From positions 9,952-73,951 of the IMG/VR virus record IMGVR_UViG_3300029466_000004: DNA of 64,000 bases; one strand, 5' to 3'. The translations under genes were made by a program, and so were the position numbers. This stretch comes from a virus. Taxonomy: Duplodnaviria > Heunggongvirae > Uroviricota > Caudoviricetes. Below the pieces are notes generated by a model. That model searched no databases and was not told the origin of the DNA. It saw only the letters and a program-made list of their open reading frames with translations. Position 1 is the first letter of the stretch. Every line of letters begins with the position of its first letter. Below, one piece after another: positions 44,700-45,586 of the stretch.

Positions 44700-45005
44700 A
44701 TGGACGAGCAGGAAAAGGTTACTACAAAGAAAAAAGAGAAAATTGTCACTAATGGGGCTGAAATCGTAAAGGACGTAATGAAGCGTCAGGATATTACGAT
44801 AGTTAGGCTTGGGGAAATTTCTGGTCTTGGGTCGAGACAAGCGGTGTATCAAAGGCTAAAAGATGGAAGTTTGAACCTTTCTACGTTTTTTAGGCTTTTG
44901 AACTCAATGAATTACCGTATTGTTGTCGAGCCGGACATGGGCGATATTGGAGATAAGGCATATATTGTCGAGGGGACAGTCGTTGAAAAGGACGGTGAAC
45001 CTTAA
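44700..45005 (+). CDS. HTH DNA-binding protein (possible small terminase subunit or regulator)
   Basis: [24 protein letters not shown]; first gene of the rightward late/packaging operon. Confidence 0.4.
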
Positions 45006-45586
45006 TGATTTACGGTTACGCTCGTGTCAGTTCCGCTGGTCAGGCGATTGACGGCAACAGCCTTGAAGCCCAGTCGGAACTTCTGAAAGCTAACGGCGCA
45101 CAGAAAATCTTTTCGGATGTTTACACCGGCACGAAGCTGCATCGACCTGAACTTGACAAGCTGATGGCTGAAATTCAGCCGGGAGATACGCTGATCGTGG
45201 CGAAACTTGACCGTATTGCCCGTTCCGTGAAGGGCGGCATTGAAATTATTGACAGCTTGCTTGCAAAAGACGTGTCCGTGAACATTTTGAATATGGGTTT
45301 GATGAACAATACATCGACCGGAAAACTGATTCGCAACGTTATGCTTGCCTTCGCAGAGTTTGAGCGTGACATGATTGTTGAGCGCACCAAAGAGGGCAAG
45401 AAGATTGCCAGTCAGCGCTCCGATTACAGGGAAGGCCGCAAGCCCACCGAGTACGACCGCAACCTCTTTGATGTTCTGCATGAACAGGTGGAAAAACGTC
45501 TGCTGACCGTCACCGATGCTGCCAAACAGCTTGGCGTGACCCGCCAGACATGGTATCGGATTGCTGAACAGAGAAAGGCTGGATAA
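45005..45586 (+). CDS. small serine recombinase (resolvase/invertase family)
   Basis: [13 protein letters not shown] catalytic Ser motif, ...LDRIAR..., C-terminal HTH; 193 aa. Confidence 0.8.

Follow-up and report, generated by a model that had tools for sequence, protein, structure and literature searches.

Identity and active site of rec

The window, a stretch of 64,000 nucleotides from a virus of the class Caudoviricetes (IMG/VR record IMGVR_UViG_3300029466_000004, positions 9,952 to 73,951), encodes a small serine recombinase, here called rec, which lies between a small helix-turn-helix (HTH) gene, orf109, and a group of cargo genes that precede the gene for the large terminase subunit, TerL (Table 1). 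Residues 2-138 of rec matched the Pfam Resolvase family PF00239 (E = 1.6e-35), residues 166-190 at the C-terminus gave weak HTH matches (HTH_17), and the protein matched PHROG_125 at 3.4e-52. By phmmer, residues 2-192 of rec aligned with residues 3-184 of Tn3 resolvase (8.5e-24) and the alignment with gamma-delta resolvase was likewise full-length (5.4e-20); Gin aligned with the N-terminal residues 1-149 (6e-20), and Sin was detectable by sequence at lower similarity (6.2e-17). The NCBIfam models XisF and Ccr matched the N-terminal domain only, far under their cut-offs.

The active site was complete. Residues 5-13 read YARVSSAGQ and fit the nucleophile motif Y-x-R-V-S-(S/T)-x-x-Q, with S9 aligned to gamma-delta S10; across an alignment of 29 sequences that took in homologs including gamma-delta resolvase, Y5, R7, Q13, R47, R73, E120, and R127 were invariant, S9, D69, and R70 were kept in at least 90%, and E126 was also seen. 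The active-site residues of rec correspond to gamma-delta R8, R45, D67, R68, R71, E118, and E124/R125, although rec differs from the Tn3 and gamma-delta resolvases in a 5-residue insert after the catalytic serine motif. Its size and single C-terminal HTH fit the format of small serine recombinases (about 180-210 aa, with an E-helix), and a large serine integrase (>400 aa, with recombinase and zinc-ribbon domains) was rejected because rec has 193 aa and lacks those domains. Because of these family matches and the conserved catalytic residues, rec is, as judged from its sequence, a canonical small serine recombinase and presumably an active one. A preliminary description, drawn from the letters and the open reading frames (ORFs), had already called it a small resolvase or invertase with a YARVSSxxQ motif and a C-terminal HTH, too small for a large serine integrase, and both statements agree with these results.

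Operon structure and conserved position of rec

The stop codon of orf109, a small XRE-like HTH gene, overlaps the start of rec (TAATGA, one base common to ATG and TAA), and the two genes are predicted to form an operon in which rec comes second. orf109 itself had no Pfam or PHROG family match, and the promoter match 5′ of it, a consensus match alone, was kept in two close relatives (L001 and L002). At the other end, the hairpin that abuts the TerL start codon folded at -26.3 kcal/mol (z = -4.0) and contains, and thereby sequesters, the TerL ribosome-binding site. Because of the promoter match 5′ and the terminator-like hairpin 3′, orf109, rec, and the cargo genes appear to form a unit framed by its own ends, and late-gene expression would, as the hairpin suggests, need read-through or antitermination past the TerL leader. 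The earlier placement of rec at the head of the packaging operon was therefore loosely true: rec does lie upstream of TerL, but it has its own promoter match and is separated from the TerL start by 2083 bp and the hairpin.

IMG/VR contained 577 stretches encoding relatives of rec, mostly contigs of about 56-60 kb. A search of isolate genomes for close relatives gave a best match only 62% identical. Among the 87 close relatives that were fetched (L001-L087), one locus stopped before TerL, and rec lay upstream of TerL on the same strand in all 86 that showed both genes, at distances between the rec stop and the TerL ATG of 92-93 bp (L030, L086, L006, and L057) to 2138 bp. The only non-coding DNA common to all close relatives was the TerL leader (~80 bp, positions 47596-47670), which together with its hairpin was nearly invariant even at 71% TerL identity, and equivalent terminator-like hairpins preceded TerL in distant relatives. 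A small HTH ORF ending in ..GEPE or ..GDSE stood upstream of rec in 12 of 12 sampled close relatives; these alleles of orf109 differed widely even where rec was 97-98% identical, and some of them matched Pfam HTH_37 or HTH_26.

Distant relatives, in which identity was about 50-55% for rec and 34-38% for TerL, kept the order rec-TerL-portal (for example L091, L106, L108, L124-126 from Collinsella aerofaciens, L131, L132, and L144), and most distant relatives also had a small HTH ORF upstream of rec (L091 and L126 did not). The module of an HTH gene and rec beside a terminase gene thus spans Lachnospiraceae, Collinsella, and Succinimonas elements. Plasmid genes accompanied rec as well: rec and a Rep3 gene were on the same viral contig, of about 56-60 kb, in at least 14 cases when the rec list was compared with the top 80 matches to the Rep3 protein of the window, from which the pairing appears typical of the family, and rec homologs 55-59% identical adjoined ParA or Rep3 on the plasmid-like contigs L089, L092, and L152.

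Two further observations were made on the recombinases and contigs of these relatives. Chimeric recombinases, with a different catalytic domain (about 30-35% identical to rec over residues 1-140) joined to the same C-terminal linker and HTH as in rec, were encoded in L002 (2486-3049, with the break at about residue 143) and represented by protein P0033, and show that recombination has occurred inside the recombinase gene. A 103-kb contig (CAVCHM010000002.1) contained a related phage twice (L124/L125), in 20.5-kb copies that were 100% identical and lay 50,136 bp apart, which suggests a concatemer or dimer assembly; the L126 copy, 92% identical to these, lay inside a 243-kb C. aerofaciens contig.

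Phage and plasmid genes of the element

A Rep3-type replication initiator, an iteron cluster, and a ParA ATPase (Table 1) were found alongside a full virion module with lysis genes (TerL, portal, capsid, tape measure, and a GH25 lysin), and the window also encodes a CI-like repressor, ERF, a DnaB-type helicase, and Rha/ANT antirepressors. No integrase was present among the window ORFs of ≥250 aa, all of which were scanned against Pfam, and no other recombinase turned up in the window when two Xer-like phage recombinases, as well as rec, served as tblastn queries. With phage genes and plasmid replication and partition genes together, and no integrase detected, the element is a phage-plasmid as far as its genes, the evidence available here, can tell; the preliminary description had considered the same setting.

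The window is longer than one genome. Homologous segments occurred at 2-1637 and 55979-57614, at 2164-2686 and 58138-58660, and at 5227-5790 and 61345-61912, so that the tail genes at the two ends, 73-89% identical, lie 55,977 bp apart, and past 61.9 kb the gene order of the second copy differs from that of the first. The source looks like two related but non-identical genomes joined head to tail, or like an assembly that ran through two variants.

Table 1. Features of the rec locus and of the replication, partition, and packaging genes of the element (positions in the window).
Feature	Position	Strand	Basis or remark
ParA partition ATPase	17883..18653	-	Pfam AAA_31 1e-53, CbiA/ParA matches
Rep3-type plasmid replication initiator	18952..20073	-	Pfam Rep3_N 1.6e-21, Rep3_C 6e-16
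Iteron cluster, TCCAC..TTGTACACC repeats in both orientations	20074..20591		Presumed plasmid origin
Candidate small terminase (TerS), P22 gp3-like	30739..31491	+	tblastn 1.8e-16 to GP3_package protein of L168
Rha/ANT antirepressor, end of RHH-headed leftward operon	42722..43534	-	Rha and ANT Pfam matches
Ribbon-helix-helix (RHH)-like (Arc-like) gene, head of leftward operon	44236..44478	-	PHROG_876 transcriptional repressor, weak
Perfect 15+2+15 palindrome (32 bp)	44569..44600		Sole perfect palindrome ≥12 bp in 64 kb
Sigma-70-type promoter match, TTGACA-17-TACAAT, 5′ of orf109-rec	44649..44677	+	11/12 consensus positions
orf109, small XRE-like HTH protein, 109 aa	44676..45005	+	Sequence; allelic partners with HTH families
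rec, small serine recombinase, 193 aa (catalytic domain, E-helix, C-terminal HTH)	45005..45586	+	Pfam, PHROG, Tn3/gamma-delta alignment, catalytic residues
orf101, cargo gene	45588..45893	+	91-97% conserved in many relatives; no Pfam or PHROG match
Repeat copy A: orf53a (45897..46058) and 3′ element	45883..46121	+	87-88% to post-orf101 modules
rtcB RNA ligase, cargo gene	46144..47358	+	Pfam RtcB 2.1e-62; PHROG_1075 5e-133
Repeat copy B: orf53b (47377..47538) and 3′ element	47363..47601	+	92-95% to post-rtcB modules
Cassette-junction core ATAAAACCGAAT, 12 nt	47596..47607	+	Recurs at cargo boundaries across relatives
Terminator-like hairpin and T-run abutting TerL ATG	47627..47670	+	15-pair stem, T6; fold
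TerL, terminase large subunit	47670..49337	+	PHROG_38 4.8e-54

Search for recombination sites near rec

Searches for repeats, palindromes, and k-mers up to 1 kb from rec in both directions, the check proposed with the expectation of a res site nearby, yielded no res-like array of paired half-sites, although a degenerate res could escape them. Neither a low-stringency repeat search around rec nor k-mer enrichment around rec at 16 loci gave anything general. The one motif cluster belonged to L131, in which TGTAACA/TGTTACA occurs seven times, in both orientations, within a 386-bp non-coding stretch directly after rec (4505-4889); a protein may bind this array, and none of the other loci examined showed it. 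In L170, a relative 59% identical, a perfect 70-bp palindrome (9627-9696) lies about 300 bp upstream of rec.

The perfect palindrome of the window, upstream of the orf109-rec promoter match, was the strongest candidate for a crossover site of rec but was rejected because it segregates with the RHH gene and is missing beside near-identical (97-98%) rec genes. Over the 87 loci it accompanied every detected RHH80 gene, RHH62 came with a version changed symmetrically, and about 60 loci with rec 89-98% identical lacked it; it was also present in L015, for which the RHH-bearing flank was not fetched. Variants were seen in L001 (2035-2073), with the centre changed from AA to TT and the arms unchanged, and in L002 (about 2090-2120), with three changes mirrored in both arms. 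Because the palindrome tracks the RHH gene, which heads the leftward antirepressor operon (minus-strand promoter match at 44471-44443), it was assigned to that module and probably serves this divergent operon as its operator.

A PADLOC scan of the rec operon and its neighbors gave nothing meaningful.

rec as a candidate multimer resolvase

Because the element is a phage-plasmid in which no integrase was found, dimer resolution would be the natural role of rec, and the explanation that we favor, about evenly poised between belief and doubt, is that rec is the multimer resolvase of the plasmid prophage. The element would be a phage of roughly 56 kb kept as a plasmid by its Rep3 initiator, iterons, and ParA; rec would be co-transcribed with the small XRE-like HTH gene from their own promoter match, in a unit closed by the hairpin before TerL and hence expressible in the prophage state. 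The predicted substrate is a plasmid dimer, and the predicted reaction is recombination between two directly repeated cognate sites, after which the resolved monomers would be partitioned.

The phage-plasmids of Clostridioides difficile provide parallels. The recombinase gp55 of phiCD38-2, which encodes ParA, was 41% identical to rec over its full length, and the ‘Hin’ recombinase of phiSemix9P1, which is circular and encodes ParA and RepB, was 33% identical; these and the recombinases of phiCD111 and CDSH1 have 186-189 aa, near the size of rec, and in phiCD38-2 and phiSemix9P1 the small serine recombinase gene occupies the map position of rec and is the last before the packaging genes. The systems also differ: the phiCD38-2 recombinase gene abuts terS, whereas rec is followed by a cargo hotspot and a hairpin before TerL, with the TerS candidate 14 kb off; the C. 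difficile phage-plasmids carry a small Xer-like tyrosine recombinase, of which tblastn found none in the window; and their hosts and virion modules are unlike those of this element. These C. difficile phages are plasmid prophages that are experimentally established or circular, and a survey of plasmid prophages lists recombinases of 192-195 aa in several Bacillus groups and treats them as resolvases or invertases without experiments (PMC8026635). Multimer resolution is counted among the plasmid functions of phage-plasmids (PMC11652158), and the role proposed for rec would match the one likewise assumed for similar phage-plasmids of Clostridia.

Among better-known recombinases, Tn3/gamma-delta resolvase (TnpR) is homologous to rec over its full length and has all catalytic residues in common with it, but rec lies outside any transposon, is paired with a small HTH gene, and has no three-subsite res detected upstream. 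Sin and beta recombinase are multimer resolvases of Gram-positive plasmids and are proposed as functional analogs of rec, which would then perform plasmid multimer resolution in Firmicutes as they do; the difference is that a two-subsite res lies directly upstream of the Sin and beta genes, and nothing comparable was detected at rec.

Several points weigh against a resolvase. Beyond the lack of a res-like array beside the gene, the usual location of resolvase sites, the similarity of rec to Gin equals that to gamma-delta resolvase, PHROG labels its family ‘DNA invertase’, and resolvases and invertases cannot be told apart by sequence alone. In distant relatives, rec and TerL are also linked on large contigs such as the 243-kb C. 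aerofaciens contig, and the element on that contig may be integrated, in which case dimer resolution would be unneeded. Lastly, a literature search for a tested function of small serine recombinases of phage-plasmids, this clade included, found none.

With rec, one more small serine recombinase joins those noted in plasmid prophages of Firmicutes, and the very abundant human-gut phage family represented by the IMG/VR stretches belongs to the phage-plasmid class with such recombinases; one binding or resolution result for this clade would annotate hundreds of phage genomes. Within the family, rec also marks, as a conserved anchor, the adjoining cargo hotspot in which rtcB and other accessory genes are found.

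Possible circularization and the link to packaging

P1 Cre, a plasmid-prophage recombinase that resolves dimers and is encoded near packaging genes, is the precedent for a dual role in which rec would circularize injected first-headful DNA as well as resolve dimers, at a site near the packaging start. rec would work similarly to Cre/loxP, even though Cre, a tyrosine recombinase, is unrelated as a protein family and no lox-like site was found; its retention next to the terminase genes would then be explained because the site would lie in the terminal redundancy of the first headful. The position of rec just upstream of TerL throughout the close relatives, the same linkage in distant relatives and in phiCD38-2 and phiSemix9P1, where it closes the map, and a gp3-like (GP3_package) TerS gene that in many relatives precedes rec by 2.5-5.5 kb are all consistent with this idea. 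We nevertheless consider it unlikely: the site search gave none, the TerS candidate of the window lies 14 kb from rec (and 16 kb upstream of TerL), res-dependent resolvases require supercoiled circular substrates, the phage ERF recombinase can circularize redundant ends, and Clostridium phage Maintenon, with a TerL 52% identical, has its TerS gene 2.6 kb ahead of TerL, with no recombinase between the two.

Apart from multimer resolution, the terminase linkage and the adjoining cargo hotspot leave only a small chance that rec has a packaging- or cassette-linked role. In particular, it is distinctly improbable that the linkage reflects a function tied to packaging or to the hotspot, whether Cre/lox-like circularization via a site in the TerL leader or cassette exchange at ATAAAACCGAAT; if true, such a role would go beyond plain plasmid dimer resolution, and a new mechanism would be at hand only if the terminase linkage proves functional.

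Possible inversion

The invertases Hin, Gin, Cin, and Pin belong to the same protein family as rec, and the PHROG_125 label and the equal similarity to Gin and to the resolvases would suit a Hin/Gin-like DNA invertase. A candidate substrate exists as well. The one notable inverted pair in a search of the whole window, 21 nt long (TTGTGCAAGTCTMCAAA..) and 19/21 identical (41641-41661 and 43899-43919), flanks a 2.2-kb segment 1.1 kb upstream of rec that holds a Sie-like membrane protein gene and a Rha/ANT antirepressor gene; the segment varies in content and length, and the pair was kept in about 50 relatives. However, no flipped state was seen in the distinct contexts compared, 30 for the left arm and 24 for the right, in which the inner flanks were always of their own type, and the Rha gene was on the minus strand in every relative. 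The left arm has no internal dyad symmetry, and no other notable inverted pair lies near rec. A flip would, moreover, alter no promoter-gene relation, because both arms lie ~45-65 nt upstream of inward-pointing promoter matches that are inside the segment.

The 21-nt repeats (41641 and 43919), never flipped and with one arm asymmetric, were therefore rejected as hix-like sites and were read as shared regulatory sites; the word TTTGTGCA common to them showed no enrichment in the window. Two inverted crossover sites of ~26 bp with both orientations present, which mark a DNA invertase, were thus not found, and unlike the Hin-type genes rec has no invertible segment or flipped variant among its relatives and is not beside tail-fibre genes. 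An invertase is accordingly a poor prospect, and the inversion of a segment by rec that had been suggested beforehand was not borne out in any relative.

The cargo hotspot and possible cassette exchange

The rec-TerL gap (45586-47670 in the window) is a cargo hotspot across L001-L087. Its contents varied among about ten kinds of genes, namely orf101, a 53-aa ORF, a YjcQ-like gene, rtcB, and at least half a dozen other small genes; rtcB was carried by a minority of relatives, and orf101 was always linked with the 193-aa C-terminal variant of rec. In L168 a GIY-YIG endonuclease gene occupies this gap. Within the window rtcB is flanked by 239-bp direct repeats, 83-85% identical, each consisting of a 53-aa ORF and its 3′ flank. 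Copy A best matched the modules after orf101 in L055, L044, and L040, copy B best matched those after rtcB in L079, L003, and L066 (Table 1), and among the relatives compared the window alone had both orf53 copies. Because the copies trace to two different architectures, the repeats were read as two diverged orf53 alleles, and the arrangement in the window looks like the product of recombination between two common architectures; the readings as a duplication, as a target-site duplication, and as a recombinase site pair were rejected on the same grounds. A resolvase requires its own res sites, not generic repeats. The direct repeats around rtcB that had been pointed out earlier are thus real but are not a resolvase substrate, and deletion of rtcB by rec is unsupported.

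A broader version of this idea, in which rec would, much as in an integron, move or delete the cassettes that separate it from TerL, draws on the hypervariable length of the gap and on the cargo junctions. The junctions coincide with the core ATAAAACCGAAT, which marks the cargo boundaries by the TerL leader as well as the rtcB and orf53 junctions and has in the window only one further copy, of 11 nt, at 47355-47365; several unrelated cargo genes have in common a ~45-bp 3′ element that ends in it. Yet dyads like the 10+10 one at this place (47598-47617) number 24 in the window and 25.9 in shuffles, no second half-site accompanies the left junctions, the second cargo insertion point, at the rec stop codon, has GGTGA microhomology alone, and distant lineages with rec-TerL cargo (L168, L170, and L007) have no repeated linker. 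The core with its 20-bp dyad was rejected as a crossover site for its chance-level dyad, the lack of partner half-sites, and the lack of an equivalent in distant lineages. The allelic nature of the rtcB repeats fits recombination at short linkers (28-45 bp), which together with the phage ERF recombinase would be sufficient for cargo shuffling by homology. Cassette movement by rec is thus very unlikely, and nothing supports a tie of rec to the neighboring rtcB cassette.

Small terminase and integrase as unlikely readings

In the minimal relatives, rec directly precedes TerL, the usual position of TerS, and rec was considered as a substitute small terminase or pac-recognition factor. The gp3-like candidate in the window, which had no direct Pfam or PHROG match but matched the annotated TerS of Maintenon by tblastn (9e-7), has counterparts in most relatives; this candidate and the TerS-TerL stretch of Maintenon without rec led us to reject rec as the small terminase, which it probably is not, and the terminator-like hairpin before TerL and the strictly kept catalytic residues, which argue for a working recombinase, also make any such part in packaging highly improbable. 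Equally far-fetched is an integrase or excisionase of a chromosome-integrating element, a reading that could appeal to the lack of another recombinase and to a window longer than one genome, the source hence being no simple monomer circle, but that is contradicted by a 193-aa protein with only a small HTH in place of recombinase and zinc-ribbon domains, by the same phage genes flanking rec at every locus and hence no att junction beside it, and by Rep3, iterons, and ParA.

Other features of the window and its relatives

The TerL of L030 contains an in-frame insertion of ~330 aa in the Walker A loop (6106-7097; ..ARVGK/ALSDDTPIL...IPTHN/STLC.., with slashes at the junctions) that has LAGLIDADG-like motifs and by these features is an intein; no Rfam intron matched it, and the TerL of the window has no insertion. 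A gap of similar size at the same place in the TerL match was seen in 15 other relatives, including L019, L031-33, L037, L038, L040, L041, L057, L067, L072, L073, L075, and L082.

The interval between TerL and the portal gene (49338-49990, ~650 bp) contains no convincing gene but a tRNA-Met at 49766-49842, and a second tRNA match lies at 12337-12407 (+); the proximity of a phage tRNA to the RtcB RNA ligase may indicate a link with defence against anticodon nucleases. Inverted ATACCAATGGTAT-like dyad clusters at 35758-35837 and 38349-38390 bracket the DnaB-type helicase gene, and one of these clusters, inside the DUF6291 gene, may be a phage origin. A RAGATH-5 RNA match was found at 40206-40256 on the minus strand, with 53.9 bits against a gathering score of 50.

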